Shown: positions 11,289-25,989 of the stretch, one piece after another | Layout: each line of letters begins with the position of its first letter | How positions within the stretch are numbered: the stretch's first letter is position 1 | Origin: Candidatus Limnocylindrales bacterium | GTDB lineage: Bacteria > Chloroflexota > Limnocylindria > Limnocylindrales > CSP1-4 | Direction of reading: 5' to 3' | NCBI GenBank assembly: GCA_035717785.1 | Contig: DASTIG010000259.1 | Location: 11,316-75,315, forward strand | DNA: 64,000 nucleotides | Notes under the pieces: generated by a model | The model's database searches: none | Told to the model about the DNA's origin: nothing | What the model saw: only the letters and a program-made list of their open reading frames with translations | Position numbers and translations under genes: made by a program

Positions 11289-11417
11289 CCGAGTCGGTTC
11301 CTCCTCCAGCGCCGCCGTCCGACCGGCCTGCGCTGACCGCTCGATGGTACGCGAAGGCAACACCTTCACGGAGCATCAGGAGGCCATCCCTCGCGGGTGG
11401 GGCTAGAATCGCCGCCG

Positions 11418-11828
11418 ATGACCAAGTTCTTCGATATCGACGCCGCCAACGAGGCCCTGGTCGAGGTCGGGCCGTTGCTCGCTACGCTCGCCGACCAGCG
11501 CGCCGAGCTGATCCGGCTGCGTGACCAAGCGCTCGCCGCGCACACGGCTGCGTCGACCGGCGGACCCGCCGGGCTCGACGAGGACGAGGCACAGCGGATC
11601 CGGCTCCGGATGCAGGGCATCGTCGACCAGATGGCCGCGGCCGTGGCGCGCATCGACGGCCTGGGGATCACGCTGCGAGATATCGAGAGTGGCCTGATCG
11701 ACTTCCCGGCTCTCGCGGGCGGCCGCCAGGTCTGGCTGTGCTGGGAGCTAGGCGAGGATGACGTGGCGTTCTGGCATGAGCTGGACACCGGGTTCGAGTC
11801 GCGACGACCGCTCATCGAGCTCGTATGA
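11418..11828 (+). CDS. DUF2203-family protein
   Basis: MTKFFDIDAANEALVEV...GREVWLCWELGEDDVAFWHE pattern. The ATG at 11418 was chosen over the upstream GTG. Confidence 0.55.
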   Translation: MTKFFDIDAANEALVEVGPLLATLADQRAELIRLRDQALAAHTAASTGGPAGLDEDEAQRIRLRMQGIVDQMAAAVARIDGLGITLRDIESGLIDFPALAGGRQVWLCWELGEDDVAFWHELDTGFESRRPLIELV

Positions 11829-12244
11829 ACGAACGCCAGGTCGTGGTCGGGACCGATGGCCGCGCCAAGGCGTATCGACCCCTGCCGGCTGACGCGCGCA
11901 TCGCCGCGGTGCGCGCCGGTCTCGAGGCCTACGCGGCCGGTGACTATTTCGAGGCACACGAGCTGATGGAGCCTGCCTGGATGGGCACAGCCGACCTGGC
12001 CGAGCGATCCCTGATCCAAGGGCTGATCAAGGTGGCCGCCGCGGACGTCCATGCGGTCCGCGGCAACCCGGCCGGCGTCCGACGGAACCTCGAAGGCGCA
12101 CGCGATCGACTGCGATCCGGCGCGACAGGATCGATCACCGGCGTCGAGCTGGACGTCGTCGGGCTCCTGGCCGCGATCGACGAGCGACTCGCCCGCTCGA
12201 CCGGCCTCGAGACGCCCATCTCGATCGACTGGAGGACACGATGA
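11825..12244 (+). CDS. DUF309-family protein
   Basis: AGDYFEAHELMEPAWM motif. ATGA overlap with the upstream gene. Confidence 0.55.
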   Translation: MNERQVVVGTDGRAKAYRPLPADARIAAVRAGLEAYAAGDYFEAHELMEPAWMGTADLAERSLIQGLIKVAAADVHAVRGNPAGVRRNLEGARDRLRSGATGSITGVELDVVGLLAAIDERLARSTGLETPISIDWRTR

Positions 12245-12609
12245 ACGCTGGCCCGCCGATCCCGGCGATCGATGTGGCGGAGGCCGAGCGGCGCCTCCGC
12301 GAGGACCCCGATCGATCGTTGCTCGTCGACGTGCGTGAGGAGAACGAGTTCGTCGACGTCCGTGCGCCAGGAGCGGTGTTATTGCCGATGTCGACGTTCG
12401 CGGCACGGGTCGGAGAGCTGCCCCAGGACCGACCGCTCATGATCGTGTGCCATCTCGGCGGCCGGTCCTTGGCCGCCGCCGGGTTCCTGATCCGGTCCGG
12501 CCGGTCCGATGTGGTCAACGTGACCGGCGGGATGGATGCCTGGGAGCGGGGCGGCCTGCCGGTCCGCCGCGGCACGCCCGATCCTGGCGAGGGCGACCTC
12601 CCCGGCTAG
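12241..12609 (+). CDS. Rhodanese-domain sulfurtransferase
   Basis: VDVREENEF...IVCHLGGRS active-site Cys loop. ATGA overlap with the upstream gene. Confidence 0.75.
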   Translation: MNAGPPIPAIDVAEAERRLREDPDRSLLVDVREENEFVDVRAPGAVLLPMSTFAARVGELPQDRPLMIVCHLGGRSLAAAGFLIRSGRSDVVNVTGGMDAWERGGLPVRRGTPDPGEGDLPG

Positions 12610-12882
12610 ACCAGCTCGGTCGGCGTGTCTGCGCGTGGTGTCGTTATCCGCGCCGCCGCGGGCTTTCACCCGTTTATGCACATGGGCCGCATCAGGCCGA
12701 GGCGAGAAGTCGCCGGGAGATGGCCTGCTTGGGCTGAGGTGTGGTCTCGCGTCTGGCGCGACCTCCTGCCGGCTCCGATCCGCAGCCCGTGATGCGGCCC
12801 GTAGGCATCTACGAAGTACGCGGCGGTCGGCGACGGAAACGGGGCATCAGCGGCGGGAGCGCCACCGCCGGGCTCGTGACCT

Positions 12883-14346
12883 CTACCGGCCCCGGCGGAC
12901 CACCCGGGAAATCAGCGCGCGGGCCTGCGGCTTGTGGGCGTACGCCCACCCGATGAGGATCAGGAGCACGAAGGTCACCGTGCCGGCGCCGGCCGCGTTG
13001 GCGTAGCCGAGCTGCTGGCCGATCTCACCGTCGATCTTCAGGCCCGGGACGGTCGCGCCGAACGGGCCGAGTTGGAAGAACGGGCTCTGGGGCGACGTAT
13101 TCGCACGAAGGCTGGACGTCACGACGCCGGCGGCCGTCTCACCGCCGGTGATGATCACGTTGGGGCCCGTCACGAAGGAGCTGCCCCCGGTCATCCCGAC
13201 GGGCAGGTCGCTGACCGGCAGATGCTTCCACTCGGTGATCGTCCCGTTGTTCTCCGGGATCGACCAATAGAGCTCGGTCTTGGGGCCCTCGTTATCTGCG
13301 CCGCCGACCAGATACAGCGTCCCGTTGGCGGTCCAGCCTGCGGGATCGTCGCGAGCCGCCGGCAGGTTCCAGGCGTTGTCGATATCCCACTTGACGACCT
13401 TGCCCTCGTCCGCGTTCACCGGGAACCCTTCCGGGGCCTCGAGGCCGACCGTGCCTCGCTGGACCGCCCCGACCGGGCCGGCCTCGTCATGGCCGCCGTA
13501 TACCAGGACGAAATCGCCGACGATCGCGGCGATGGCGTCCGTCTGCGGCCTCGCCAGCGCGGCTTCAGTCTCCCATACGCCGAGGACGCCCTTGGCGTCG
13601 AGCAGGCTCTTGTATGTCGTCGTGACGGGACCGTCCGGGCCTTCGCCGCCGATGAGCAGCAACCCATCGGGCGCGGCCACGCCAGCCGCCCCGCCACGCG
13701 CCTCGGGCAGCGCCAGGCCTTCGACTGGCGTCCAATCCGGCAGCACGCTGGTCTGCGGGTCGGGCGTCATCGAGAACACCGTTGTCGTCGGTGCACCCTC
13801 GGCGTCGAAGCCCCCGATCACATAGACCGTGCCGGACACGGCGACCACGCTTGCATCGGTCCGCGGCTCGGGCAGCGGCGGACCCTCCTGCCACGCGTCG
13901 AAGTTGCCGGTGCCTGACAGCTCCGCCACGAACACGGTCGACTGTGCGGTCGTGCCGTCTGAGCCGCCGATGTAGAGGATCTTCGTGCCGAGCTGGATCG
14001 CGGTGCCATCGGTCCGGGCAGCCGGAAGTGCAAGATCGGCCGGCGACTCGTGCCACGGCACGATGGCGCCACGCGGCGCCGGGCACGGGAGCGACTCGTT
14101 CTCGGACGAGCAGAAGTTGATGGGTGACCACACGAGCAGGCCGAGGTCGACCGTACGGTTGACTGTCAGGTAGTACGCCCGATCCGGGATGTAGCCCAGC
14201 AACAGGATGATGATCACCAACCAGACGAAGGCCTTGATGCTGGCCCACGTCCAGCTGTCGGCATCGAGCAGGCCGAAGAGTGCCCGCCTCTTCGGCACGA
14301 TCGTCCCGGGCCCGAGGGCAGGACGCGTGGTCCCGGTGGCGCTCAT
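12883..14346 (-). CDS. Kelch-repeat / galactose-oxidase-like beta-propeller membrane protein
   Basis: N-terminal TM helix (FVWLVIIILLLGYI), repeated GG..DG..T blades (LYIGGSDG, VYVIGGFD, LLLIGGEG, VLVYGGHDE, LYLVGGADNEG, IITGGE), and a C-terminal TM helix. ATGA overlap with the cytochrome c gene stop. Confidence 0.65.
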   Translation of the reverse strand: MSATGTTRPALGPGTIVPKRRALFGLLDADSWTWASIKAFVWLVIIILLLGYIPDRAYYLTVNRTVDLGLLVWSPINFCSSENESLPCPAPRGAIVPWHESPADLALPAARTDGTAIQLGTKILYIGGSDGTTAQSTVFVAELSGTGNFDAWQEGPPLPEPRTDASVVAVSGTVYVIGGFDAEGAPTTTVFSMTPDPQTSVLPDWTPVEGLALPEARGGAAGVAAPDGLLLIGGEGPDGPVTTTYKSLLDAKGVLGVWETEAALARPQTDAIAAIVGDFVLVYGGHDEAGPVGAVQRGTVGLEAPEGFPVNADEGKVVKWDIDNAWNLPAARDDPAGWTANGTLYLVGGADNEGPKTELYWSIPENNGTITEWKHLPVSDLPVGMTGGSSFVTGPNVIITGGETAAGVVTSSLRANTSPQSPFFQLGPFGATVPGLKIDGEIGQQLGYANAAGAGTVTFVLLILIGWAYAHKPQARALISRVVRRGR

Positions 14347-15434
14347 TCGGCCGTGAGAGTGCCGGTCATGTTCGGGTGGACTGAGCAGACGAACGGATAG
14401 TCACCCGCGGCGAGCGCCGGGACGTTGTAGTCCGCCTCGGCGACGCCCGTGATGATGTCGCCCCGAACGACGACCTGACCGCTGGAGTCGTTGACCTGGA
14501 CGTTGTGCGCCACGCCGTTCTCGTCGTTGGCGAAATGGATGACGAAGGCCTCGTCAGCGGGCGCGGTCGCGGTGCTCTGGTCGAAGGCACTGCTCGAGCT
14601 CGTCGAGATCTCGACGACCGTGGCATTCGGATCCGGCGTGGCGGCGGGCGACGTGCCAGGCGACGGGCTCGCGCCGCCGGTGAGCGCATCGAGGTAACAA
14701 TCCGGGTAGGGCGTCGCCTCGGGAGCGGGCTTGTAGTTCGGGTCGCGCCAGCCCGTGAAGGTGATGACCTGACCAGTGATCGGGTCCTTCTTCGGATCGA
14801 GCAGATGCTCGTCCCGGACGATGTAGGTCTGGTCGTTGGTCGCGAGCAGGAACGCGATGAGCTCCTCGATCTGGCGATAGTTGAGCGGCCCGGCCGGATT
14901 GCCCGTGTCCGACCAGATCGGCATCTTGGATAGCGGGTTACCGCAGACATAGCGGCCACCGACGGTCAGCACATTCCGGATGTACGCCTCGTTGAGGTGG
15001 CTGAACAGCTTCTCCTGGCTGTTGAGGGTCGGGCCCTCCCCGCCCTCGCCGTCCACGCCGTGACAGCGCGCGCAATTCGCCTCGTAGATCAGATAGCCGC
15101 GCTCGACCCTGGCGACCTGCTGGGCGTCGATCTCCATGGCCTGACGCGAGGTCGTGAGCCCGCCCGGGGTGCCCAGCTCGTAGAACCAGTACAGCGAGAT
15201 GAACAGGATGATGACGACCAGCGCGAGGAAGCCGACCCAGCGTGCGTTGGCCGACTGGCGAACGACCTGGGCAGCCCGTTCCGGTGTGAACTCGATCCTG
15301 CGGATCGACGGTGGCGCGGTGAACCGGTCGACCGGTGCCACCTCGTCCGGCGGACGAACGGCAGGCAGGCGCTGCTCGGGCTCGCGTCCCTCGGGCTCGC
15401 GCCCCTCGGGCTCGCGTCCGGGCGTATCGGTCAT
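14343..15434 (-). CDS. Membrane-anchored mono-haem cytochrome c fused to a type-1 copper cupredoxin domain
   Basis: One TM helix, CARCH haem-binding site, SKMPIW Met-ligand region, and a C-terminal cupredoxin (VAHN ... CSVHPNM, i.e. C-x2-H-x2-M). Start reset to the ATG at 15434 (MTDTPGREPEGREPEGREPE) because the track ORF start overlaps the Rieske gene. Confidence 0.75.
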   Translation of the reverse strand: MTDTPGREPEGREPEGREPEQRLPAVRPPDEVAPVDRFTAPPSIRRIEFTPERAAQVVRQSANARWVGFLALVVIILFISLYWFYELGTPGGLTTSRQAMEIDAQQVARVERGYLIYEANCARCHGVDGEGGEGPTLNSQEKLFSHLNEAYIRNVLTVGGRYVCGNPLSKMPIWSDTGNPAGPLNYRQIEELIAFLLATNDQTYIVRDEHLLDPKKDPITGQVITFTGWRDPNYKPAPEATPYPDCYLDALTGGASPSPGTSPAATPDPNATVVEISTSSSSAFDQSTATAPADEAFVIHFANDENGVAHNVQVNDSSGQVVVRGDIITGVAEADYNVPALAAGDYPFVCSVHPNMTGTLTAE

Positions 15435-15474
15435 CGGTCCCCTCGAGCGGTCGGGTCGATCACGCGCATGCCGT

Positions 15475-16149
15475 TCAGATGCAGCCGGTCGGGGTGCGCG
15501 GTGGGATGATGCCCGGCTGCCCGAGCGCGACGGGGAGTGGCCCCAGGGTGATCTTGCCGGTATCGATCGAGAGGACGCCGCCGCCAGAGACCGAGATCGA
15601 GAACCGGTCCATACCGCGCGGCGCCGGGCCGTACTGCGCACCGTCGGCCTTGATCCCGAGCCGGTCGTAGCGCGACCCGTGACAAGGGCACTCCAGCCAG
15701 AAGTTCTTCAGGCATGGGTTGGGTTTGCAGCCCAGGTGTGGGCAGCGCTGGTAGAGGGCCCGCACGTTGAGCGCAGATCCCTCGCCGCTGGTGTCCTCGC
15801 CGGCGACGAACCGCTGCTGGGCCGGGTCCTTGAGGATCACGAACGCCCTGGCCTCGGGGAAGTAGGCCGGGAAACCCTCCGCGATCGGCAGCGTGCTGTT
15901 GAGCGTCTTGACCTCGTCGAGCGTGCCGATCCGCAGGACGCCGCCGAAGCCCTTGCGGAGGCTGGGCCAGGCGAACGCCAGCGTGCCGGCCAGCGCCTCG
16001 AGGGTGCCGAGCGCGATCCCCGCTCCGAGCGCGACGCGCATCAGCCGCCGCCGGGACATGCCCTGCACCTGTTCCTTGCGCAGCGACTTGATGGCCTCGG
16101 ATGTCAGGGCGGCGGGCTGGGCGGCCGGTTCGACATGGTAATTGCTCAT
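15475..16149 (-). CDS. Rieske [2Fe-2S] protein with a twin-arginine signal
   Basis: SRRRLMRVALGAG Tat motif; CPHLGC and CPCHGS Rieske boxes. Confidence 0.9.
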   Translation of the reverse strand: MSNYHVEPAAQPAALTSEAIKSLRKEQVQGMSRRRLMRVALGAGIALGTLEALAGTLAFAWPSLRKGFGGVLRIGTLDEVKTLNSTLPIAEGFPAYFPEARAFVILKDPAQQRFVAGEDTSGEGSALNVRALYQRCPHLGCKPNPCLKNFWLECPCHGSRYDRLGIKADGAQYGPAPRGMDRFSISVSGGGVLSIDTGKITLGPLPVALGQPGIIPPRTPTGCI

Positions 16150-16156
16150 GGCGGTC

Positions 16157-16759
16157 CTACAGCGAGAAGTACATGCCAGGGGCGGTCACGAACGGGATGA
16201 CGAACGTGTAGCCCGGGCCACGGAAGAAGATCCCGACGAACGTCAGGACCAGGCCGAGGATGCAGAACAGCGTGAACAGGACCACCGCCGTCTTTCGCTG
16301 GGACGGCCGCGTGACCAGGATGTCGCCGCGATCGACATAGGGGATGAGTGCCGCCCCGACGAGCACGAAGGTCGGCGCGAGGACGCCTGCCACGACCGGA
16401 TGCAGGTAAGCCAGAAGCTCCTGGAGTCCGAGGAAGTACCACGGCGCCTTGGCGACGGCCGGAGTGACATTGCCGTTCGCCAGCTCCTCCAGCGGCGCGT
16501 TGATGAACAGCCCCATGAGCAGCAGGAAGATCGACATCACGCCGGCTGCCAGGAACTCGATCGACAGCAGGTGCGGCCAGGTCATGACCGTGTCGTCCGG
16601 TTCCTTCTGGACCCGGACGACCGCGTCCTGCTTGACGAGCGCGAGCAGCCGATACGGCCGCGCCGACATCGGCACGCGCTGCTTGTCGATCTCGGTCCGC
16701 CGTGCCGGGTCGACGGGCAACACCTCGCGCCGGGTGGTCGGATCCTTGGTATCGGTCAT
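16157..16759 (-). CDS. Cytochrome b C-terminal domain / subunit IV of a b6f-type complex
   Basis: Three TM helices and KAPWYFLGLQELL (PEWY-type motif). Confidence 0.8.
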   Translation of the reverse strand: MTDTKDPTTRREVLPVDPARRTEIDKQRVPMSARPYRLLALVKQDAVVRVQKEPDDTVMTWPHLLSIEFLAAGVMSIFLLLMGLFINAPLEELANGNVTPAVAKAPWYFLGLQELLAYLHPVVAGVLAPTFVLVGAALIPYVDRGDILVTRPSQRKTAVVLFTLFCILGLVLTFVGIFFRGPGYTFVIPFVTAPGMYFSL

Positions 16760-16886
16760 CCCAACCGCCTCGCAATCTCCGGACCGCTAGGACGGCCGAG
16801 GCGAAGGCGCCGCCGAGCAGCGCGAGCGAGCGCACCTCGAGGTGCGTGAGCGAGTGCGCGGAGGCGGCAACGCACGCGTCGGTCGC

Positions 16887-17615
16887 TCATAGCGGGCCGG
16901 AGATCCCGCCGTCTTTGCGGATCCGCCAAAAGTGCACCGTAAGGAAGATGGCCGCGATGAGCGGCAAGAACACGACATGTCCCACATAGAACCGTATCAA
17001 TGTGTTCTGGCCGACTTCGACGCCGCCGAGGAGGATTCGATTGACCGGCGTGTTGAAGATCGGGACGTAGCCACCCATGTTCGTGCCGATCGTGATGGCC
17101 CAGAAGGCGATCTGGTCCCACGGCAGCAGGTAGCCCGTGAAGCTCAGCATGATCGTGAGGAAGAGCAGGACGACCCCGACGACCCAGTTGAACTCGCGCG
17201 GCGGCTTGTAGGCCCCGTGGTAGAAGACCCGCATCATGTGCAGGAACACGAAGAACACCATGAGGTGGGCGCCCCACCGATGGACGTTCCGGGTCAGCAG
17301 CCCGAACGTGACTTCGCTCTGGATCTCGAGGATGTTGGTGTACGCCAGGGTCGCCGATGGGACGTAGAAGAACATCAGGTACACGCCGGTCACGGTCAGG
17401 ACGAGGAACAGGAAGAACGACAGTCCGCCGAGGCAGAACGTGTAGGCGAACTTGACCGCGTGCTGGCGGACGCGGACCGGGTGGATGTGCAGGAAGACGT
17501 TGTTCATGACCGCGTACGCGCGCGAACGCTCGTCCCGCGGGTAGGGCTGCCGGAAGAGGGACCGCCAGACCGGGCTACGCCGGATCGTCTGGTCGACCCG
17601 CTCCAGGAAACTCAC
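16887..17615 (-). CDS. Cytochrome b6 (N-terminal four-helix haem-binding domain of split cytochrome b)
   Basis: HRWGAHLMVFFVFLHMMRVFYHGAYK and LPWDQIAFWAITIGT with conserved His ligands. ATGA overlap with the upstream flavoprotein stop. Confidence 0.85.
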   Translation of the reverse strand: MSFLERVDQTIRRSPVWRSLFRQPYPRDERSRAYAVMNNVFLHIHPVRVRQHAVKFAYTFCLGGLSFFLFLVLTVTGVYLMFFYVPSATLAYTNILEIQSEVTFGLLTRNVHRWGAHLMVFFVFLHMMRVFYHGAYKPPREFNWVVGVVLLFLTIMLSFTGYLLPWDQIAFWAITIGTNMGGYVPIFNTPVNRILLGGVEVGQNTLIRFYVGHVVFLPLIAAIFLTVHFWRIRKDGGISGPL

Positions 17616-19489
17616 CGGGCTCCTCCTGCGACGCCGGGGGTGCCGGCCAGCTGCGCATCCCGGTACGACTCCTTGTAGAGCCGTCCGTCAGTCGAGATCT
17701 CCTGCAACTCGAACCGCTCCATCGTAATGGCGTCGAACGGGCACCGCTTGACGCACAACGCGCAGCGGATGCAGCGCTCCTCGTCGAGGATCATGGCGCC
17801 GCCGTTGTCCCAGCCGTAAGCCTCCTCGAGCTCCGGCAGGAGGCCCTCGGACTTGAGCGTGTTGATGTCGGTCATGTGAATGACGCCCTCGGGGCAGACA
17901 TCCGCACACGCGCCGCACAAGACGCAGCGGAACGGGTCGAACCAGATGTTGTAGTTGCACATCAGGCAGCGGGTCGATTCGGCGACCGCGCCGTTCGCGT
18001 CGTAGCCCATCTCGACCGGCGTGTTGAAGTTGACGATCGGATCGGTCGATGGCATCCGCGCCTGGAGCGGGACCATCGGGATGTGCTGGCGGGGCAGGAC
18101 GTCGTAGAACTCGGGCATGTCGTGGCGCCACGAACTCGTGACCTTCACGTTCGCGTCGACCGTCACGTCGGTCCGGCCGGCGAGGTAGCGGTCGATCGCG
18201 TAGGCGGCCTTCTTGCCGTGCCCGGCCGCCTCGATCAGCGTCGTCGGGCCTGTCACGAAGTCGCCGCAAGCGAACACGCCGCGGACGTTCGTGGCGTACG
18301 TCGCGGGGTCGACCTTGACCCGGCCCCGATTGATCTCGAAGCTCGCGTCGACCGGCAGGAACGTCAGGTCCGCCGCCTGCGACACGGCCGGGATGACGGT
18401 CTTGGCCGGGACGAGGAACTCCGATCCCTCGATGGGGACCGGGGAACGTCGACCGGATGCGTCCGGCTCACCGAGGCGGTTGCGGATGAACTTGACGCCG
18501 GTAACCTTGCCGTCTTCGCCGAGCACCTCGATCGGGCTGGCAAGGAACTCCATCCGGACGCCCTCGCGCTCGGTCTCTCCGAGCTCCTCCTCGTCGACCA
18601 CGAGCTCCGAGCGGGTCCGCCGGTATGCGATCGTGACGTTCTCGGCGCCGTGGCGCAGGCTGGTCCGCGAGCAGTCCATCGCGGTGTAGCCACCGCCGAT
18701 GACGACGACATCGTTGCCCACCTCGAGCGGCTGACCGAGATTGGCGCGCTTCATGAAATCGACGCCGTAGTCGACGCCCTCGAGGTCGGCGCCCGGGACG
18801 TCCAGGGCGACGGCGTCCATCGCCCCGGCCGTGATCGCGATCGCGTCGAAATCGCGCTGGAGCTGATCGAACGTGATGTCTTTGCCGATCGTCGTGTCGT
18901 AGACGAATGCGACCCCGAGGCGTTCGATCAGCCGGACGTCCATCTCGATCGCCTCGCGCGGGAGGCGGAACGCGGGGACGCCGATGAGCATGGTGCCGCC
19001 GCCGTACGGGAGGCTGTCGAACACCGTGCACTGATAGCCCTTCATGGCCAGCTCCCGGGCGACGGCCAGGCCGGCCGGGCCGGCGCCGACGATGGCGACC
19101 CGATCGACCCGCGGCGCGATGTCGGGCATGACGTCCGGGATGCCGGACGCCTCGTGCCACTCGACGAGGAACCGCTTCATCGCCCGGATCGCCAGCGGGC
19201 GATCGATGTCGCCGCGCCGGCAGGCCCGCTCGCACGGCGCGGAGCAGACGTACGAGCACATCGCTGCGACCGGGTTCGGTTCGCGGGACAAGATGTAACC
19301 CTCTTCGAACCGGCCTTCGGCGGCGAGGTTGAGATAGCCCCGGCAGTTGGTCCCGACAGGGCAGGCTTCCTGGCATTCGATGTTGCACTGCAACCAGGAG
19401 GCGTCGACAGGCTGGACGAGGAATTCCTGGGCTGGATCGATGGCCAAGCGGGCGTGCCTTTCCGTGGAGTGGTCGGGCTCGGGGCGCAA
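17612..19489 (-). CDS. GltD/SudA/NfnB-like NAD(P)H-dependent iron-sulfur flavoprotein with a C-terminal 2x[4Fe-4S] ferredoxin domain
   Basis: N-terminal Cys cluster (CNIECQEACPVGTNC ... CSYVCSAPCERAC), FAD site VAIVGAGPAGLAVA, NAD(P) site VVVIGGGYTAMD, and two CxxCxxCxxxCP motifs (CLMCNYN..CVLCGACADVCP; CIRCALCVKRCP). Confidence 0.8.
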   Translation of the reverse strand: MRPEPDHSTERHARLAIDPAQEFLVQPVDASWLQCNIECQEACPVGTNCRGYLNLAAEGRFEEGYILSREPNPVAAMCSYVCSAPCERACRRGDIDRPLAIRAMKRFLVEWHEASGIPDVMPDIAPRVDRVAIVGAGPAGLAVARELAMKGYQCTVFDSLPYGGGTMLIGVPAFRLPREAIEMDVRLIERLGVAFVYDTTIGKDITFDQLQRDFDAIAITAGAMDAVALDVPGADLEGVDYGVDFMKRANLGQPLEVGNDVVVIGGGYTAMDCSRTSLRHGAENVTIAYRRTRSELVVDEEELGETEREGVRMEFLASPIEVLGEDGKVTGVKFIRNRLGEPDASGRRSPVPIEGSEFLVPAKTVIPAVSQAADLTFLPVDASFEINRGRVKVDPATYATNVRGVFACGDFVTGPTTLIEAAGHGKKAAYAIDRYLAGRTDVTVDANVKVTSSWRHDMPEFYDVLPRQHIPMVPLQARMPSTDPIVNFNTPVEMGYDANGAVAESTRCLMCNYNIWFDPFRCVLCGACADVCPEGVIHMTDINTLKSEGLLPELEEAYGWDNGGAMILDEERCIRCALCVKRCPFDAITMERFELQEISTDGRLYKESYRDAQLAGTPGVAGGAR

Positions 19490-19709
19490 CGTGATGATCG
19501 GCTGTTCGCCGACCGCCCGAATCTACCATTCGCCTCGTGAGGGCTGCAAAGGCGCGGCCGGGCGCGGTGAGCGTGCGCCCCGCCGTCGAGACGCGTTCAC
19601 GCGCACGCGTCACAGGTTGACGCTGACCCGTGTTCGCAGCTACGCTGGCCATGCGGGGGAAGCCGCCCGTGCTCGGTGAGGAGCGCGATCGGATGGAGTT
19701 GCGGACAGC

Positions 19710-21455
19710 GTGACCGGGAGCGAGTTCGTCTTCCTGGCGTTCGGCGTGATCCTGGGGATCGCCGCGGGTGCCGCCCTCATCGAGTTCATCCGGGCACGGC
19801 GACCCGCGCGTGGGGTCCGAGTGATCGTGGCCCCGGACGCCGTCCCCCGCCGTCGCGCCGCGACCCTCGCCAACGATGCCTTCACCGACTCACCGGTCGC
19901 AGTGGACCCGGCCCACGGGGGCCCGGCCGACCGCCAGGGCCTGCTGTCGAACAACGGCCTGTCCGAGCCGTCATCTCGAACACCTGTTCTCACCCCAACG
20001 CCCCGGCCTGTGGCCGAGCCGGCCTTCCGGCTGACCGGGCCGACACCCCCGACGGTCGGCCCTCTCGTGCCAGGCGCCCCAGGACGGGCCGCCGCACAGG
20101 GGATGCCGATATCGACCGGCATCGACCCGATGCTGACCGCCCTGCGGGCGAGCGCCGCCGCGAGCGCCGCGTCGGCCATGCAGGGTGCCGCCGCGCCCGT
20201 CGCCACCGCCGTCATGACGGAGTCGGAGGAGCCGGCCGAGGTCGCTGCGAAGGCCAACCCGGCGTCGACGACGAAGGGCCGAGCGACGAAGGGTGCGAGC
20301 CAGGCGGCGCCCGAAGCCCCGTCACCGACCGAGGCTCCGAGCGGACCGTGCGGTGAGGCGCGGCGCATCGCCGATGAGCGTTGCGAGCTCGCGACCCGGG
20401 CCCGAGGCCAGGCGGTCGCGGCGGAGGACACCCACCGGGCAGCGCAGCGTGCCTACGACGACCACGAGACCGCCATGGCGGAGGCCGCCGCGTCAGCCGA
20501 CGCCCGGGCGATCCGCCAGGCCAAGGACCAGGCCCAGGCACGATTCCGCGCAGGGCGGGCCGGGGCGCGCACCGCCGAGGACGTCGAGAACGCGGCACGC
20601 GACTGGCTCCACGAGATCAATAGGATCAACGCCCAGACCGGCGACGCGACCACGATCCTCGAGCGCACGCGCGCTGCCGCCCCCGAGATGGCGGTCCGCC
20701 TGGAGCGGACGGCCGTCGAGGCAGATGGGGCGCGGGTCGCGGCCGAGACCGCCGAGGCGGCGTGCGTGGCGGCTCGCCAGGCCGTGGCGGATTGCGAAGA
20801 ACGCGCCGCAGGCGGCCGTCCGAGTCCGCCACCGACCGGCACGGACGACGATCGGGACCGGGACGACGCGGCATCCGACACGCTGGTGGCCGCTTTGCGA
20901 GCCGGGGCATCACCACGGATCGTGCGGCTGCTGCGCGGCGATCGGACGGCGATGCACGAGGTCGTCGATGCGCTCGGTGGCGACGACGCCGATGAGCGGC
21001 GCCGATGGCAGGTCGCGATGGCCGATCTCACCGACGCGATCGTGGCCGATGCGATCGCCGCGTCCGCGTTCGACTTTCCGACCGACCACCCATTCTGGGG
21101 TCCGTTCAACCGGTCGCAGGGGCGCGACATCGCGGCCGCGCTGTCGTCACTCGGTTATCGATTCGATGGGCTCGGCGGCTGGGTCGACGATCGGTACCCG
21201 TCGCAGCGCGACCTGTCGCTCGCGCTCGGCTATGCCGGCCTCGACCCCATGCGCATGCGTCACTGGCCGAACGACGCCGAGATGGCGACGCTGTTCCAGG
21301 AGGTCGAGGTGGCCGCTGCGGAGCACCTTGCCAACACGGCCGGTGACCTTACCCTAGGCGAGCTCGTCGCGATGCTTGGGCGGCGGGCCGACGGACTAGC
21401 GGACATCTGGAACGAGTGGGGACGGATCCGGCCGGTCCTGCTCGACGAGCGCTGA
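19710..21455 (+). CDS. Membrane-anchored Ala-rich coiled-coil protein of unknown function
   Basis: Single N-terminal TM helix, a long Ala/Glu/Arg-rich helical region, and a conserved-looking C-terminal domain. Codon bias is consistent with coding. Confidence 0.5.
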   Translation: MTGSEFVFLAFGVILGIAAGAALIEFIRARRPARGVRVIVAPDAVPRRRAATLANDAFTDSPVAVDPAHGGPADRQGLLSNNGLSEPSSRTPVLTPTPRPVAEPAFRLTGPTPPTVGPLVPGAPGRAAAQGMPISTGIDPMLTALRASAAASAASAMQGAAAPVATAVMTESEEPAEVAAKANPASTTKGRATKGASQAAPEAPSPTEAPSGPCGEARRIADERCELATRARGQAVAAEDTHRAAQRAYDDHETAMAEAAASADARAIRQAKDQAQARFRAGRAGARTAEDVENAARDWLHEINRINAQTGDATTILERTRAAAPEMAVRLERTAVEADGARVAAETAEAACVAARQAVADCEERAAGGRPSPPPTGTDDDRDRDDAASDTLVAALRAGASPRIVRLLRGDRTAMHEVVDALGGDDADERRRWQVAMADLTDAIVADAIAASAFDFPTDHPFWGPFNRSQGRDIAAALSSLGYRFDGLGGWVDDRYPSQRDLSLALGYAGLDPMRMRHWPNDAEMATLFQEVEVAAAEHLANTAGDLTLGELVAMLGRRADGLADIWNEWGRIRPVLLDER

Positions 21456-21461
21456 CGGCCG

Positions 21462-22220
21462 CTAGCCCTTCGACTCGTCCTCGTCGTCGTCGATGACGAT
21501 GACGCGCAGGGCCTCCGCCGCTCCGGCACTGATCGACTCACCCTCCTCGGCCGCCCAGCTCCGGATCCGTGTGGCAAGGGCATCCATGTCGCGGATCTGG
21601 CTGCGATGCTCGCCCAGGGCGGCGAGCTTGCGGTCGAGCGTCCCCGTGACGTCGACCCATGCATCGGGCCGCTCCGACCAGAAGAGGTACAGGCGCCTCA
21701 CCGCGTGGGCCGCCAGGCCGTCGCGAGCCAGGGCAGGGAATGCCATCGGGTTGCGCGCGGCCGGATAGACGGCATCGACCGCAGCGAAACCCGCCGCACG
21801 ATGATCCGTGTGGTTCACGCCGCCGCCGCGATGGAACACGGCCTCCGGGTCGGTGGCGAAGACCGCGTCCGGCCGGAACGTCCGGATCTCGCGGACGAGA
21901 AGCTCCCGCAACGGAAGGTCGTTCGCGAGGGCGCCGTCCGGCTGGTGGAGGAAGCTCACGCCCGCGTAGCCGACCACGGCCGCCGCGGCGCGCTGCTCGG
22001 TCTCGCGCAGCGCCGCCAACTCGAGCGGATCGGCGTCCGGGTCCTCGCCACCCTGGTCGCCCGACGTGCAACACACCAGCCAGCCGACGGATCCCGCATC
22101 GATCCAGCGGGCGGCCGTGCCGGCCGGACCGAAGTCGGCGTCGTCCGGGTGACCGGCGATAACCATGAACCGGGCGGGCCGCCAGTCGTGGTCGCGAGGC
22201 GGCTCGGGCGGGCCCGTCAT
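21462..22220 (-). CDS. PIG-L / LmbE-family N-acetylglucosaminyl deacetylase
   Basis: VIAGHPDDADFG motif. The start is uncertain; the track ORF extends to 22331 and the internal ATG was chosen. Confidence 0.65.
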   Translation of the reverse strand: MTGPPEPPRDHDWRPARFMVIAGHPDDADFGPAGTAARWIDAGSVGWLVCCTSGDQGGEDPDADPLELAALRETEQRAAAAVVGYAGVSFLHQPDGALANDLPLRELLVREIRTFRPDAVFATDPEAVFHRGGGVNHTDHRAAGFAAVDAVYPAARNPMAFPALARDGLAAHAVRRLYLFWSERPDAWVDVTGTLDRKLAALGEHRSQIRDMDALATRIRSWAAEEGESISAGAAEALRVIVIDDDEDESKG

Positions 22221-22376
22221 GTGGCGCGCCGGCGGGGGGCTCCAACACGCCGCGGCCATGCAGGAATGTCCTTGCGGGCCGTGTGAGGGGCGCGTACGCT
22301 TGAGGCCGAGGCTTCGCTCGTCTCCCCCCACGGGCGAAGTCTCATTCCATTCCCGGGAGGACCCGTCACCGGCCGG

Positions 22377-22859
22377 TCAGCGGGCGACGGCCTGGAGCTC
22401 GTCCAGGGCGGCCAGGACCTCGCCGGCGTGGCCCTCCGGCTTGACCTTCGGCCAGACATTGGCGATGCGTCCGGCGGGGTCGATCAGGAACGTCGTCCGG
22501 GCCGTTCCCATGTAGGTCCGCCCGTAGTTCTGCTTCTCGACCCACGAGCCGTACGCCTCGGCGACCTGGTGATCCTCGTCGGCCAGGAGCGTGAACGGTA
22601 GCCCGAACTTCTCGCGGAAATGACGCTTGCTGGCGGCACCCTGGGGGCTGATACCCCAGACATCAGCACCCCGCTCGGTGATGGTTTGGTTCGCGTCGCG
22701 GAACTCGCAGGCCTCGACCGTGCAGCCGGGGGTGTCGTCCTTGGGATAGAAGTAGAGGATGGTCCAGCGGCCGCGTTGATCGGCGAGGTCGTGGACCGTG
22801 CCCGTCTCGTCGGGCAGGGCGATCGGGGGCGCCTGATCGCCGACGGTCGGCATGCTCAT
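22377..22859 (-). CDS. bcp: Thiol peroxidase, Bcp-type peroxiredoxin
   Basis: YFYPKDDTPGCTVEAC peroxidatic Cys motif. Confidence 0.85.
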   Translation of the reverse strand: MSMPTVGDQAPPIALPDETGTVHDLADQRGRWTILYFYPKDDTPGCTVEACEFRDANQTITERGADVWGISPQGAASKRHFREKFGLPFTLLADEDHQVAEAYGSWVEKQNYGRTYMGTARTTFLIDPAGRIANVWPKVKPEGHAGEVLAALDELQAVAR

Positions 22860-22861
22860 CG

Positions 22862-23554
22862 TCAGAGCGTAGCAGGGGTCTCCACGATGAGGAGCCGGCC
22901 GGCCCGGAGAGTGACAGTCGCGGTCTCAGCGGTCCGCACGTTGGACAGCCCCCTGCTGCGGCCGACGAGCAGGGCCTCGTCCTGGAGCGGGAACTGGAGG
23001 CCGATGGTCGTCACGCCGGTCGCGTCGGCACCGACCGGCAGCAACGACACGAGGTCGTCGATCCGGCCGCTGAGGTCCTCCTCTTCAGGCGAGCCGTCCG
23101 GCGCGGGAGCCGACAGCAGCCGGACGCGTGCATCGGCGCCGACCAGACGGACGTCGACGGCGCGGAGCTCCGGCATCGCGAGGAGCGCCAGGTTCGCGAG
23201 CGCATGGTCGAGACGCGGGCCGCCGAGCGCGCCGAGGATCGTGATCGCCGACGGCCGCTTGGTCAGCGCCGCGGCGACGGCCAGCTCGGTGTCGGATTCG
23301 TCCTTGTCGACTGGCGCCCGTTCGACCGGGATCCCCGCGGCCTCGAGGGACGCGATACCGTCCTCGCCGAGCGAGTCGCCATCGCCGACCCACAGATCGA
23401 TACGCAGCCCGAGCGCTCCGGCATGCCGCGCGCCGCCGTCCGCGGCGACCACATACGGGTCGGGCGCCAGCCAGCCGGGCCAGGCCAGGTCGATCGCTGT
23501 ACGCGAGCCCACCTCGCCGTCCGCGAGGACGATGGCCTGGGTGGTCGACACCAT
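22862..23554 (-). CDS. Thiamine pyrophosphokinase
   Basis: LWVGDGDSL and the TPK fold pattern. Only the C-terminal 230 aa of track ORF 22862..24202 are real; the rest is an antisense artefact. Confidence 0.65.
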   Translation of the reverse strand: MVSTTQAIVLADGEVGSRTAIDLAWPGWLAPDPYVVAADGGARHAGALGLRIDLWVGDGDSLGEDGIASLEAAGIPVERAPVDKDESDTELAVAAALTKRPSAITILGALGGPRLDHALANLALLAMPELRAVDVRLVGADARVRLLSAPAPDGSPEEEDLSGRIDDLVSLLPVGADATGVTTIGLQFPLQDEALLVGRSRGLSNVRTAETATVTLRAGRLLIVETPATL

Positions 23555-23602
23555 GCTGCGGATGCTAGCGGTCCCGCACGAACCCGATGCTAGACTCCGG
23601 CC

Positions 23603-24163
23603 GTGCCCACCCCCATCGACCACCCTGCCGTCCGACGCGTCATCGCCGCTGCAGAGCGGAAGGGGATCGACCTCGACATCGTCACGTTCGACGAGTCGAC
23701 CCACACCGCCCAGGAGGCGGCGCTGGCGGTGGGCGGCGAACTCGGCCAGATCGTCAAGGCGCTCGTGTTCGTCGCCCCGTCCGACGCAGGGCCCGAACCG
23801 ATCATCTGTCTCGTGTCGGGTCAGAACAGGGTCGACGTCGCCCGGCTGGCGGCGGTCGCCGGCGAGCCGGACATCCGTCGGGCCACGGCTCGCGAAGCGC
23901 ACGAGCTGGTCGGCTTCGTCATCGGCGGTATCCCGCCCATCGGTTTCGATCGGCCGGTCCGCGTGATCATGGACCCGGACCTCGGGCGGTATACGACCGT
24001 GTGGGCAGCCGCCGGTCTGCCGACTGCGGTTTTCGAGGTGCCTCCCGCGACGTTGCGCACGCTGGCCAACGCCACGGTCGCGCCGATCAGCGAGGAGCGT
24101 CGGGCCGCCGATGTCGAGGCGGACGAGCAGGGATCCGGTCGCCTCGCCTCGACGGGGGCGTGA
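23603..24163 (+). CDS. ybaK: YbaK / prolyl-tRNA-synthetase-associated aminoacyl-tRNA deacylase
   Basis: YbaK/ProX editing-domain pattern (VKALVFV, GFVIGGIPPIG). Confidence 0.7.
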   Translation: MPTPIDHPAVRRVIAAAERKGIDLDIVTFDESTHTAQEAALAVGGELGQIVKALVFVAPSDAGPEPIICLVSGQNRVDVARLAAVAGEPDIRRATAREAHELVGFVIGGIPPIGFDRPVRVIMDPDLGRYTTVWAAAGLPTAVFEVPPATLRTLANATVAPISEERRAADVEADEQGSGRLASTGA

Positions 24164-24759
24164 CGGCACAGGCGGGGTCGAGCCGCGTGGCTCGCGAACC
24201 ACGCAACGCGACGATCGCCTACCCGGGCGGTCTGCGCGCGCGCTGGCGCTGGGGCGGCAGCGGTCAGTCGGCCGACGTTTTCGCGCTCAGCGAGGCCGGT
24301 GGAACGCTCATCGACCTGGGCCCCAACGTCAGCTCTGACCCCGATGCCCTGTGCCGTGCCGAGCTCCGGCTCGAGGGCCCGCGCGGGTCGTGGACGGCCC
24401 GGTTCGCCTCGACGATCTTCGACGAGCCGAGGGCGATCTACTGGGACACGGCCGGTCTGCTCATCGTGGCTTACGGGTTCCATACGTTCGGGCTGGACGC
24501 CGCCAGCGGCACCCTCCGCTGGGAGCATCGCTCGGCATCACCCATCATCGCGCTGCTCGGGTCGCCGCGGCTCGGCCACGTCCTCGTGCAGGCCGAGATC
24601 GAGACGTTCGCGCTCGAGGGGGACGGGACGGTCGGGTGGCGGGTCGCCCACTCGGACGTCGTCACCGCCGCCGAGCTTGTCGGTGGTCGGCTGGTCCTGA
24701 CCGGGTTCGACGGACAGCTCAACGCCCTGGATCCTGCGACCGGCCGGTCGGCGGGCTGA
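24160..24759 (+). CDS. Hypothetical protein
   Basis: GTG start overlapping the ybaK stop (GTGA). About 199 aa with coding-like composition and no recognised domain. Confidence 0.35.
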   Translation: MTAQAGSSRVAREPRNATIAYPGGLRARWRWGGSGQSADVFALSEAGGTLIDLGPNVSSDPDALCRAELRLEGPRGSWTARFASTIFDEPRAIYWDTAGLLIVAYGFHTFGLDAASGTLRWEHRSASPIIALLGSPRLGHVLVQAEIETFALEGDGTVGWRVAHSDVVTAAELVGGRLVLTGFDGQLNALDPATGRSAG

Positions 24760-24910
24760 CCGCGATGTGGACAGACGGTGGATAACCCGGCGCTTGTCGC
24801 CCACATTCGTGGATGACCGCCGTTGACCGTGTCGAGGCTGCACCCGTAGCGTAGAGGTCAGCCCGGAGGGGCCGAACGATACTAACGGCGGCGATCGCAT
24901 CAACGCCCAC

Positions 24911-25879
24911 GTGTCGTGGAGGTTCCTTCGGGCCCTTCCATGTCCGGCCACTCACGGACGAGCGGGTATAGTCGCCGCCGTGACCCCCCTGATCCCGATC
25001 GTCGTCGGCTTCGTCGCGCTCGGCATCGGCGTCGCGATCCTGCGGACACTCGGGACGAATTACCGAGTCGGACGGCTCCTCGCGGTGACACCTGTCGTGC
25101 CGGTGGCGCAGGCCCGCGAGCTGGCCTCCGGACCGCCGCGGTTCGTCGCGGTCCGCGGCCGGATCGATGCCGAGCAGGAGTTCGAGGACGACGCGCACCG
25201 CCCCCTCGTGTTGCGTCGGGTCCGCGTCCAGCTCGCCAACGGTCGCGGCTGGACGACGATCGACGAGCAGCGACAGTCTGTGGACTTCGAGGTCCGCGAG
25301 GGTCTCGACGGGATCGCCGTCGACCACGACGCGATCGCGGATGGGCTCATCGTCATCCCGCGCCAGTCCGTCGGGACGGCGGCCGACGCGCCCGACCGCG
25401 TCCCGCCCGGCACGGCGCCGGAGGTCCCGCTGCGCTTGCGGGTCGAGCAGTTGTCGTCCGTCGAGCACGCAACGGTGGCCGGAGTCCCGGCCATCGACCC
25501 GTCGAGCGGCACGGCCCGTATGACCGCCGGTCTTGGACGCCCGCTCATCGTCACGACCCTCGAACGCGATGAGGCGATGCGCGTGCTCGCGGCCGATGCG
25601 CCGCGGCGGCCGCTGATCGCCGTCATCGCGCTGGCGATCGGGCTCATCGCGATCACCGTCGGCCTGGCGTGGGCGGTGGCCGGCGCGCTCACGCAACCGG
25701 CCCTGGCCGCGACCCCGTCGCCTTCGGCCGTCCTCGGCGGAGATCCGCGCAGCAGCGGCGAGGGTCCTGGGCTGGTCGGCGATCCCCTGACTGCCATCGT
25801 GCTCGTATTCGTGATCGGCATCGGCGCCGCGATCACGGCGGCGTTATACGTCCGCCTGACAGGAGGTCGCCGAGCCTGA
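24911..25879 (+). CDS. Hypothetical polytopic membrane protein
   Basis: TM helices at the N-terminus, middle and C-terminus. No recognised domain. Confidence 0.45.
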   Translation: MSWRFLRALPCPATHGRAGIVAAVTPLIPIVVGFVALGIGVAILRTLGTNYRVGRLLAVTPVVPVAQARELASGPPRFVAVRGRIDAEQEFEDDAHRPLVLRRVRVQLANGRGWTTIDEQRQSVDFEVREGLDGIAVDHDAIADGLIVIPRQSVGTAADAPDRVPPGTAPEVPLRLRVEQLSSVEHATVAGVPAIDPSSGTARMTAGLGRPLIVTTLERDEAMRVLAADAPRRPLIAVIALAIGLIAITVGLAWAVAGALTQPALAATPSPSAVLGGDPRSSGEGPGLVGDPLTAIVLVFVIGIGAAITAALYVRLTGGRRA

Positions 25880-25989
25880 TCGCGGGGTCCCGGGCGAACA
25901 TCCGACTGCCGGGACCTTCGGACTATTGGAAAGAACTGTGAGATTGGTAGCCTCGGCCACGTGCACTTCACAGTTCCTCCATCGAGGCG

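Follow-up and report, generated by a model that had tools for sequence, protein, structure and literature searches.

An operon that pairs a b6-type Rieske/cytochrome b complex with an NAD(P)-linked iron-sulfur flavoprotein in Candidatus Limnocylindrales: kinship with the anammox-type complexes and possible functions

Why should a flavoprotein of the type that reacts with nicotinamide nucleotides (NAD(P)H) be encoded together with a quinol-oxidising Rieske/cytochrome b complex? This question is raised by a locus at positions 12883-19489 of the window, by which we mean the whole stretch of 64,000 nucleotides analysed from a Candidatus Limnocylindrales bacterium (assembly GCA_035717785.1, contig DASTIG010000259.1). 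The locus consists of six open frames on the minus strand with a strong third-position G+C bias, in a window with a G+C content of ~70%. In gene order, they encode an iron-sulfur (FeS) flavoprotein, cytochrome b6, subunit IV, a Rieske protein, a cytochrome c-cupredoxin fusion protein and a Kelch protein. This order and the domain content had been proposed from the bare letters of the DNA (the sequence-only reading), and both were recovered in full when the open reading frames were analysed with Pfam, NCBIfam and motif searches. A Rieske/cytochrome b complex that bears an NAD(P) oxidoreductase is a possible second route from quinol to NAD(P)H, besides the reversal of complex I driven by the proton-motive force, and functional thinking about it has so far been built on the slow-growing and genetically intractable anaerobic ammonium-oxidising (anammox) bacteria. 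As judged from its sequences, the present locus is a member of the subfamily G or 'APWY' Rieske/cytochrome b complexes with an NAD(P) flavoprotein.

Neighbourhood conservation had been set beforehand as a test of the pairing, and the adjacency of the flavoprotein gene to Rieske/cytochrome b genes proved to be kept across several phyla. Alignment A2, run against a single genome for each GTDB species, gave 80 loci; 88 loci were fetched in total, and the neighbouring genes were detected by tblastn searches with the proteins of the window. The flavoprotein gene adjoins genes for the Rieske protein, cytochrome b6 and subunit IV in 28 of these 88 loci. These linked loci span Limnocylindria, Acidobacteriota (15 loci), Scalindua, Brocadia, Nitrospinota, Nitrospirae, Zixibacteria, Victivallales and one further contig. 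Five related Limnocylindria-type loci have all six genes in the order of the window; a sixth locus has the first five, after which its contig ends (L001, L004, L006-L009). Two Limnocylindria-type contigs share the flanking genes as well as the six genes of the window, and the GTDB scan added four more metagenome-assembled genomes (MAGs) of Limnocylindria or Chloroflexia with the window's order. The same scan yielded 13 Acidobacteriota MAGs with the order flavoprotein-Rieske-b6-subunit IV, and one linked locus each in Nitrospinota, Victivallales, Zixibacteria, Nitrospirae and Ca. Brocadia sapporoensis (L071). Cytochrome b6 and subunit IV were detected in all linked loci of the scan, and the Rieske protein went undetected in two of them.

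The order of the genes and their further partners differ between lineages. The Scalindua locus comprises genes for a Rieske protein, cytochrome b, a small open reading frame, the flavoprotein, a subunit IV-like protein, an 803-residue multihaem cytochrome c and a cytochrome c. In the Ca. Acidoferrum locus, the order is cupredoxin-like protein, flavoprotein, Rieske, b6, subunit IV, 713-residue multihaem cytochrome c and cytochrome c. The six-gene arrangement lies far beyond chance. The adjacency is kept while the gene order varies, a pattern to be expected of the subunits of one complex. No gltB-like gene was found in 85 related loci. Relatives of the flavoprotein from Firmicutes, Desulfobacterota, Bathyarchaeia and other groups are not encoded beside cytochrome b, and in a neighbour-joining tree, which carries no bootstrap support and is indicative only, they mostly form a separate clade. 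In the same tree, a few unlinked flavoproteins (P0124, P0293, that of Capsulimonas and others) cluster among the linked ones; P0124 is the nearest outgroup flavoprotein and is 50% identical, with no cytochrome b gene as its neighbour.

Two of the loci deserve separate mention. One of them, L087 (GCA_035639165.1), is labelled Candidatus Limnocylindrales and carries an Acidobacteria-type cluster of genes for a cupredoxin-like protein, the flavoprotein, Rieske, b6, subunit IV and a 680-residue multihaem cytochrome c. Its flavoprotein is near-identical to one labelled Ca. Angelobacter, and the locus represents either a second type of complex in the lineage or a binning error. The other, L088 (a contig of Logan SRR10029121), has the order flavoprotein-Rieske-b6-subunit IV-dihaem cytochrome c, flanked by genes for a molybdopterin oxidoreductase, a 4Fe-4S protein and an EB_dh protein. 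From its sequence, the flanking enzyme resembles the type II dimethyl sulfoxide reductase family, and it may represent another high-potential periplasmic partner for the module.

The flavoprotein gene (17612..19447, minus strand) encodes a protein that is predicted to bind flavin adenine dinucleotide (FAD), NAD(P) and FeS clusters, with Pfam matches to Fer4_20, Pyr_redox_2 and Fer4. The N-terminal Fer4_20 domain holds eight cysteine residues, which would suffice for two [4Fe-4S] clusters; two Rossmann domains (Pyr_redox_2) form the middle part, and the C-terminal dicluster ferredoxin domain carries one CxxC and two CxxCxxCxxxCP motifs. No transmembrane segment was predicted in this protein. 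Its best NCBIfam match is PRK12771. A ranking of PDB sequences is headed by the large NADP(H)-binding subunits of NfnABC and StnABC (9bov_A, 6.5e-108; 9n5u_A, 5.6e-107; 8oh5_C, 2.6e-93), followed by NfnB (4ylf_B, 5.6e-85) and NfnI-L, then by GltD (6e-64) and finally by dihydropyrimidine dehydrogenase (4e-31). A Foldseek search with an AlphaFold2 model returned the same order and adds nothing beyond the sequence ranking; this model was built from an alignment of 16 sequences and is confident in the Rossmann core only, with predicted local distance difference test (pLDDT) values below 50 for the FeS domains. The stretch AYRRTRSE after the second Rossmann strand corresponds to the YRR(T/S)xE of StnABC/NfnABC-type NADPH enzymes. 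Because this stretch is shared with NADPH enzymes, we propose NADP(H) as the nucleotide of the flavoprotein, albeit with low confidence. The flavoproteins of Acidobacteriota contain an insertion of ~35 residues behind the second GGG motif and show CLE(S/R)R at the place of YRRTR in the window, which hints at a different nucleotide preference in that group.

An identity as GltD, the small subunit of glutamate synthase, was considered and rejected. On this protein, the curated GltD models score between less than one half and ~70% of their cut-offs (TIGR01317, 200.8 bits with a cut-off of 447.7; TIGR01318, 266.9 with 483; TIGR01316, 330 with 472), the C-terminal dicluster domain is an addition to the GltD plan, the PDB ranking puts other families first, and gltB is missing from the related loci. 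The description 'GltD/SudA-like' given in the sequence-only reading needs a qualification, since the closest solved relatives are StnC, the large subunit of NfnABC, and NfnB, and not GltD or SudA. The closest 120 homologues in a set of 5.8 billion proteins are 86-94% identical, and those with a name come from Candidatus Limnocylindrales or Chloroflexi MAGs. In a library clustered at 50%, the identity drops to 50% for one cluster and then to ~40% for many full-length proteins of 570-650 residues. Profile A1, which represents these nearest non-self relatives, retrieves an 'NAD(P) oxidoreductase [Candidatus Scalindua rubra]' and proteins of Scalinduaceae, Ca. Acidoferrum, Ca. Angelobacter and Chloroflexota. 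The Scalindua rubra protein is 40% identical to that of the window over its full length, and the cysteine residues conserved throughout the family are aligned. The kinship with the anammox complexes that the sequence-only reading had proposed is thereby borne out, since this Scalindua protein is encoded inside a Rieske-cytochrome b-subunit IV-multihaem c operon; the same holds for the Brocadia locus L071. Public names of the family include 'formate dehydrogenase major/beta subunit', 'NADPH-dependent glutamate synthase beta subunit-like oxidoreductase/ferredoxin' and 'FAD-dependent oxidoreductase'; the linkage to Rieske/cytochrome b is reflected in none of them.

Cytochrome b6 (16887..17615, minus strand; 242 residues) is of the four-helix type (Pfam Cytochrome_B, 1.8e-46). 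The pairs His112/His126 and His213/His228 are the ligands of the two b haems, and Cys61 in the sequence YTFCLGG forms the CxGG site for a covalently bound haem cn. The closest PDB sequence is that of chloroplast cytochrome b6 (8.7e-52), which aligns from residue 59 onward. The preceding 58 residues (17442-17615, minus strand) form an extension on the electrochemically negative side of the membrane (n-side), with His43 in the motif FLHIHP. This extension, with its WRSxFR-like and N-x-F-L-H motifs, is found in all 27 cytochrome b6 sequences of the window and the linked loci, and His43 is invariant in the same 27. Limnocylindria, the anammox bacteria, Nitrospinota and Nitrospirae retain the cysteine of the CxGG site, which Acidobacteriota, Victivallales and Zixibacteria have lost. 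In the Acidobacteriota sequences from L003, L010-L012, L014, L016, L017, L020-L022, L024, L027, L036 and L057, this cysteine is replaced by Y or F. Cytochrome b6 appears to be fused to subunit IV in L012, L021, L022 and L057, where frames of ~440-510 residues were seen. In L008 (9834-11171), the cytochrome b6 frame diverges at its C-terminal end and continues into subunit IV, which looks like a frameshift and is probably an assembly error.

Subunit IV (16157..16759, minus strand; 200 residues; Pfam Cytochrom_B_C) carries the Qo motif AKAPWYFL, which is of the 'APWY' type and not of the PEWY or PDWY type. APWY is present in all 26 linked loci analysed for it, as AKAPWY in 24, TKAPWY in L004 and MRAPWY in L049. 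On the n-side, the subunit has the motif TWPHLLSIEF, of which the Glu is common to the anammox proteins. It has three transmembrane helices in the window; a two-helix C-terminal extension is present in anammox bacteria, Nitrospinota and Nitrospirae, and most Acidobacteriota show an internal insertion.

The Rieske [2Fe-2S] protein (15475..16149, minus strand; 224 residues; Pfam Rieske and TM_PetC) has a signal for twin-arginine translocation (SRRRLM) and two boxes that bind the cluster, CPHLGC and CPCHGSRY. Judged by sequence only, the Ser and Tyr of the second box are a high-potential signature. Wherever this box was readable, namely in 22 linked loci and the window, it reads CPCHGS or CACHGS. 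The next gene (14343..15434, minus strand) encodes a membrane-anchored monohaem cytochrome c-cupredoxin fusion protein of 363 residues (Pfam Cytochrom_C and Cupredoxin_1), with a transmembrane segment at residues 66-84, a site for haem c (CARCH) and one for type-1 copper (His...CSVHPNM). The last gene (12883..14346, minus strand) specifies a Kelch beta-propeller protein of 487 residues (Pfam Kelch families) with one transmembrane helix at each end. By tblastn, the fusion protein and the Kelch protein are confined to Limnocylindria-type loci, apart from one weak partial cytochrome c match in L019. The Kelch gene is conserved in L001, L004, L006, L008 and L009 at 41-60% identity and, on this sequence evidence, is a lineage-specific sixth gene; a PDB search with its product gave generic Kelch propellers only and no lead to a function.

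The kind of complex to which this operon belongs has been described before. In a 2025 study of Kuenenia Rieske proteins, a putative cytoplasmic NAD(P) oxidoreductase was assigned to two of the three Kuenenia complexes (PMC12954380). All subunits of Kuste4569-4574 co-migrate, with the homologous NAD(P) oxidoreductase among them, and expression of the complexes is high (PMC12954380, PMC5600118). Isolated anammox Rieske fragments have potentials of +303 and +335 mV; in AlphaFold3 models, four FeS clusters lie between the FAD and the part in the membrane, haem cn has a Glu ligand, and an additional haem b, which had not been expected, sits on His43/His62 of the two cytochrome b monomers (PMC12954380). 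The function favoured by these authors is quinol-driven production of NAD(P)H by bifurcation (PMC12954380), so that the proposal which the sequence-only reading had cited is documented. Kao & Hunte 2014 defined an 'APWY clade' of cytochrome b, none of whose members had been characterised, in delta-Proteobacteria, Chloroflexi, Nitrospirales, Planctomycetes, some Actinobacteria and two genera of Firmicutes; all of its cytochromes b are paired with mid- to high-potential Rieske types (PMC4122944). Dibrova et al. 2017 noted genes for large, NAD(P)-binding, Cys-rich oxidoreductases inside the bc operons of some planctomycetes and, in their updated tree, a proximity of oxidoreductase and bc genes 'in many other cases'. 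The novelty that the sequence-only reading implied for the pairing is therefore lower, since a pairing beyond the anammox bacteria was already on record in that work. For Limnocylindria, we found nothing specific in the literature on Rieske/cytochrome b complexes, nor on the combination with a cytochrome c-cupredoxin and a Kelch protein. What is new here is the lineage and the minimal, aerobic-looking composition with a lineage-specific Kelch protein; the kind itself is already known. The pairing had reportedly been discussed earlier still, by Kartal in 2011 and 2013 and, under subfamily G, by Dibrova in 2013.

What might such a complex do in Limnocylindria? The reading that we favour, with a probability of roughly 40%, is that the gene products form one membrane complex, a b6-type quinol oxidase with an NADP(H)- and FAD-binding subunit on the n-side, which would bifurcate the electrons of quinol to NADP+. 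Menaquinol would be oxidised at the APWY Qo site, which lacks the acidic residue. One electron would pass to the high-potential Rieske protein and on, via the membrane-anchored cytochrome c and its fused blue copper domain, to a terminal oxidase. The other, strongly reducing electron would travel through haems bL, bH and cn, and possibly through an additional haem that His43 binds at the interface, before it reaches the ferredoxin domain, the two Fer4_20 clusters and the FAD; two such electrons would reduce NADP+. The flavoprotein would thus be wired to the membrane haems by at least four [4Fe-4S] clusters. In this way, NAD(P)H could be made from a reductant at the level of quinone at no expense of proton-motive force, presumably in a reversible manner; the scheme is the one published for the homologous anammox complexes. 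What is inferred here is that the flavoprotein is attached, which path the electrons take, which nucleotide is used and, above all, the direction of flow. The flavoprotein probably docks on the n-side, with the conserved N-terminal extension of cytochrome b6 as the surface and the ferredoxin domain nearest to the haems.

Several observations speak for the bifurcating direction. The Rieske box of the window carries the Ser/Tyr signature, and APWY was seen in 26 of 26 linked complexes. Among solved structures, the flavoprotein stands closest to the NADP(H) modules of StnABC and NfnABC, which work reversibly. The module is met repeatedly where electrons must be raised to the level of NAD(P)H, as in the anammox bacteria, Nitrospinota and Nitrospirae, and it is also encoded beside varied high-potential partners on the electrochemically positive side (p-side). 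By symmetry, the high potentials of the anammox Rieske fragments would leave haem bL low enough to reduce NAD(P)+. There is also evidence on the other side of the scale. Even for the anammox bacteria, the case for this mechanism is made up of the potentials of isolated Rieske fragments and AlphaFold3 models. Moreover, an aerobic heterotroph has easier routes to NADPH. A haem cn with a Glu and a His nearby looks like a working Qn site, which would short-circuit the low-potential branch, as the anammox authors themselves have pointed out (PMC12954380). Haem cn has been lost in Acidobacteriota, Victivallales and Zixibacteria, and the path therefore cannot be uniform; P0124 and several flavoproteins of the clade stand alone, and therefore the module is not obligatorily bound to cytochrome b. 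The FeS domains of the AlphaFold2 model are too poor for an estimate of cluster spacing or of the docking face.

The electrons may also run the opposite way, the main rival reading, which we regard as real and, on balance, unlikely. The flavoprotein would then be a dehydrogenase for NAD(P)H that cytochrome b6 anchors and whose FeS wire feeds haems cn/bH and through them menaquinone on the n-side, or the b haems directly, with the resulting quinol oxidised at Qo. The whole would be an NAD(P)H:cytochrome c/copper oxidoreductase that contains a redox loop of its own, similar to the cyclic flow driven by ferredoxin/FNR into cytochrome b6f. This direction is thermodynamically downhill and would suit a host lineage that looks like an aerobic heterotroph with a simple cytochrome c-cupredoxin outlet; in addition, Dibrova et al. 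view a cytochrome b with a protruding oxidoreductase as a 'membrane-anchored dehydrogenase'. The conserved Cys of haem cn and the Glu and His of subunit IV (WPH...E) suit a proton-coupled reduction of quinone, and, according to the anammox authors, such a His is without an obvious role in a plain transfer from haem to haem (PMC12954380). However, the opposite direction would waste the ~250 mV between NAD(P)H and menaquinone, which the same authors consider unlikely where proton-pumping NADH dehydrogenases exist (PMC12954380). It also leaves unexplained why APWY is invariant, and the high-potential Rieske signature present, in all linked complexes, and why the module is enriched in lithotrophs that need reverse electron flow.

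It is improbable that the flavoprotein is co-transcribed with the complex without being a subunit of it, for instance as a soluble NADPH:ferredoxin-type oxidoreductase that serves cofactor maturation, the poising of the quinone pool or protection from over-reduction, or in an unrelated role. In favour of this view, no membrane segment is predicted in the protein, and there are close relatives with no adjoining cytochrome b gene, namely P0124 (50% identical), P0293, L026, L030, L048 and L063. Nevertheless, the adjacency has been kept in at least seven named lineages despite a reshuffled order, the flavoprotein and cytochrome b6 genes are translationally coupled through a GTGA overlap, and the homologous anammox subunit co-migrates with its complex (PMC12954380). 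The N-terminal extension on the n-side, which is absent from b6f and present in all linked cytochromes b6, would moreover offer a plausible docking surface. Far less credible still is an ordinary GltD that happens to sit upstream of a b6-type complex. The Fer4_20 and Pyr_redox_2 core would fit this view, as would the presence of gltB in the same window. Against it stand GltD model scores below the cut-offs, the extra dicluster domain, the precedence of StnC, the NfnABC subunit and NfnB (1e-108 to 1e-85) over GltD (6e-64), and the lack of a gltB-like gene in all 85 related loci. The proposal that the closest relatives might be glutamate synthase subunits encoded next to gltB has thus failed, as no relative adjoins gltB. 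The gltB gene of the window lies 15 kb away, at the window edge (3-2384, minus strand), and encodes the N-terminal 794 residues of GltB (GATase_2 and the central domain). It runs off the start of the window, and therefore its flavin mononucleotide domain and any downstream gltD lie outside; the earlier remark that gltB lacks an adjacent gltD here is uninformative.

If bifurcation to NADP+ is the function, the consequences would reach beyond this operon. Complex III of Limnocylindria and of many aerobic Acidobacteriota would then be an O2-driven, quinone-based bifurcating NADP+ reductase that delivers one electron to O2 and one to NADPH, a generalisation that we put forward as doubtful for the time being. 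Were it true, reductants at the level of quinone, such as succinate or the trace gases H2 and CO, could be turned into biosynthetic NADPH with neither a reversed complex I nor a cost in proton-motive force. The hypothesis of Kartal for anammox bacteria would then describe a general and widespread respiratory strategy, testable in cultivable aerobes. Whatever its direction, the module is a standard part, coupled by translation, of the only complex of the b type that we saw in this highly abundant lineage of aerobic type, and it also occurs in families of Acidobacteriota with cultured aerobes. The window presents it in its simplest form, with four core subunits and the flavoprotein, which makes for simpler material for biochemistry and cryo-electron microscopy. 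An anammox-type complex is thus widespread among abundant soil and freshwater bacteria of aerobic type, where its function could become easier to test. In metabolic reconstructions, the labels 'glutamate synthase beta subunit' and 'formate dehydrogenase beta subunit' are wrong for this flavoprotein gene.

As to the layout of the operon, the sequence-only reading had described ATGA overlaps or short gaps, with an ATGA coupling of the flavoprotein. A true ATGA overlap joins the stop of the cytochrome c-cupredoxin gene to the start of the Kelch gene; the overlap between the flavoprotein and cytochrome b6 genes is a 4-nt GTGA (GTG start, TGA stop) with GGAGGA as a Shine-Dalgarno sequence ahead of it, and not ATGA, and the remaining junctions are gaps. 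The gap between subunit IV and Rieske measures 7 nt, and that between Rieske and cytochrome c ~40 nt if the latter starts at ATG 15434. The spacer between the cytochrome b6 and subunit IV genes (16760..16886, minus strand) is 127 nt long, as compared to 18 nt in L001 and ~120 nt in L006. Two starts required a decision. The flavoprotein frame is open to TTG 19489, the start adopted in the sequence-only reading, which appears over-long; the start is most likely TTG 19447, because the resulting 611 residues are the length of most homologues. Likewise, the cytochrome c-cupredoxin frame is open up to 15641, and its start is most likely ATG 15434 (363 residues), because the homologues measure 337-355 residues.

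The operon is bounded on both sides by genes on the opposite strand, a rhodanese gene (12241-12609, plus strand) and a gene for a 581-residue protein (19710-21455, plus strand). A consensus-based promoter scan of 12400-19900 found no promoter-like site and is uninformative on the transcript. A terminator scan of the same region gave three terminator-like sites, all within coding sequence and no more than in shuffled sequence, and an Rfam scan of the operon, including the 127-nt spacer, gave no match. The flanks are syntenic in related MAGs (L001, L004), over window positions 19710-28923 and 11397-12609. The first of these flanks encodes the 581-residue protein, which has no Pfam match, a PIG-L deacetylase, an AhpC/Bcp peroxiredoxin, a thiamine pyrophosphokinase-like protein, a HAD protein and, at 25951-28923, a protein with a MerR-type helix-turn-helix, three GAF domains and a GGDEF domain. 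The second encodes DUF2203, DUF309 and the rhodanese. Elsewhere in the window (38077-41481, minus strand), a gene encodes an 1134-residue molybdoenzyme of the xanthine dehydrogenase / aldehyde oxidase / CO dehydrogenase family, which joins two [2Fe-2S] domains and the molybdopterin-binding domains in one chain.

How the complex of the window relates to known systems can now be stated. With cytochrome b6f it shares the split into b6 and subunit IV, the His spacings of x13 and x14, the Cys for haem cn and the C-terminal sequence RKDGGISGPL. However, b6f has PEWY and cytochrome f, whereas the window has APWY and a class I cytochrome c-cupredoxin fusion; b6f also lacks the 58-residue n-side extension, and it binds FNR/ferredoxin transiently, in contrast to the dedicated flavoprotein gene seen here. 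The Geobacter ExtOPQ system (a Rieske protein, a cytochrome b and a membrane protein), encoded in the extHIJKLMNOPQS cluster, belongs to the same broad subfamily, in that the window cytochrome b6 just passes the NCBIfam cut-off for ExtP (293.2 versus 290 bits). By contrast, the ExtQ model fails (55.6 versus 150 bits), the Ext cluster contains no flavoprotein, and the window locus has none of the ExtKLMNS multihaem cytochromes, porin and selenoprotein. The label 'selenite/tellurite reduction' that comes with ExtP was rejected for the window cytochrome b6 on the basis of the genomic context and the ExtQ score. The ExtP model covers the region of cytochrome b6 that holds His43.

The flavoprotein itself resembles the StnABC, NfnABC and NfnAB enzymes (8oh5, 9bov, 9n5u, 4ylf, 5jca) in its NADP(H)-FAD module with two [4Fe-4S] clusters, which is ~40-50% identical, and in YRR(T/S); StnC and NfnABC also have further FeS motifs after this module. 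Unlike in these enzymes, a partner of the NfnA type (FNR-like, [2Fe-2S]) or of the NuoE/F type is absent among the six genes and their immediate neighbours. The partner of the flavoprotein would be the membrane-bound b6/Rieske complex, and therefore any bifurcation would be quinone-based, at Qo, and not flavin-based. The closest match in kind is subfamily G of Dibrova, which is the APWY clade of Kao & Hunte. It has the same short cytochrome b, CxGG and APWY motifs, and a wide, patchy spread over taxa, among them Chloroflexi, Planctomycetes, Nitrospinae and delta-Proteobacteria, although some of its members, such as Geobacter ExtOPQ and the p-cresol cluster of G. metallireducens, have no flavoprotein.

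Within this subfamily, the anammox complexes (Kustd1480-1485 and Kuste4569-4574 of Kuenenia, and those of Scalindua and Brocadia) come nearest. They share with the window a split, b6-like cytochrome b with CxGG, a subunit IV with AKAPWYFL, a Rieske protein with CPCHGS, and a cytoplasmic FAD/NAD(P) protein in the operon with the same domain order and conserved cysteines, homologous to subunits of the Kuste4570/Kustd1483 type. The N-terminal His of cytochrome b6 and the Glu of subunit IV lie in the regions that, according to AlphaFold3, provide ligands to the extra haem b and to haem cn. There are also clear differences. The p-side partners of the anammox complexes are hexa- or octahaem cytochromes or an HAO-like protein, whereas the window has a single monohaem cytochrome c-cupredoxin; their subunit IV has five transmembrane helices as compared to three, and their N-terminal FeS domain has five cysteines as compared to eight. 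The window has, in addition, the Kelch membrane protein and the order flavoprotein-b6-subunit IV-Rieske, and its host belongs to a Chloroflexota lineage without an anammoxosome or hydrazine metabolism. The multihaem cytochrome c or HAO-like partner and the five-helix subunit IV define the anammox sub-type, and not the wider kind of complex that the Limnocylindria operon shares with it.

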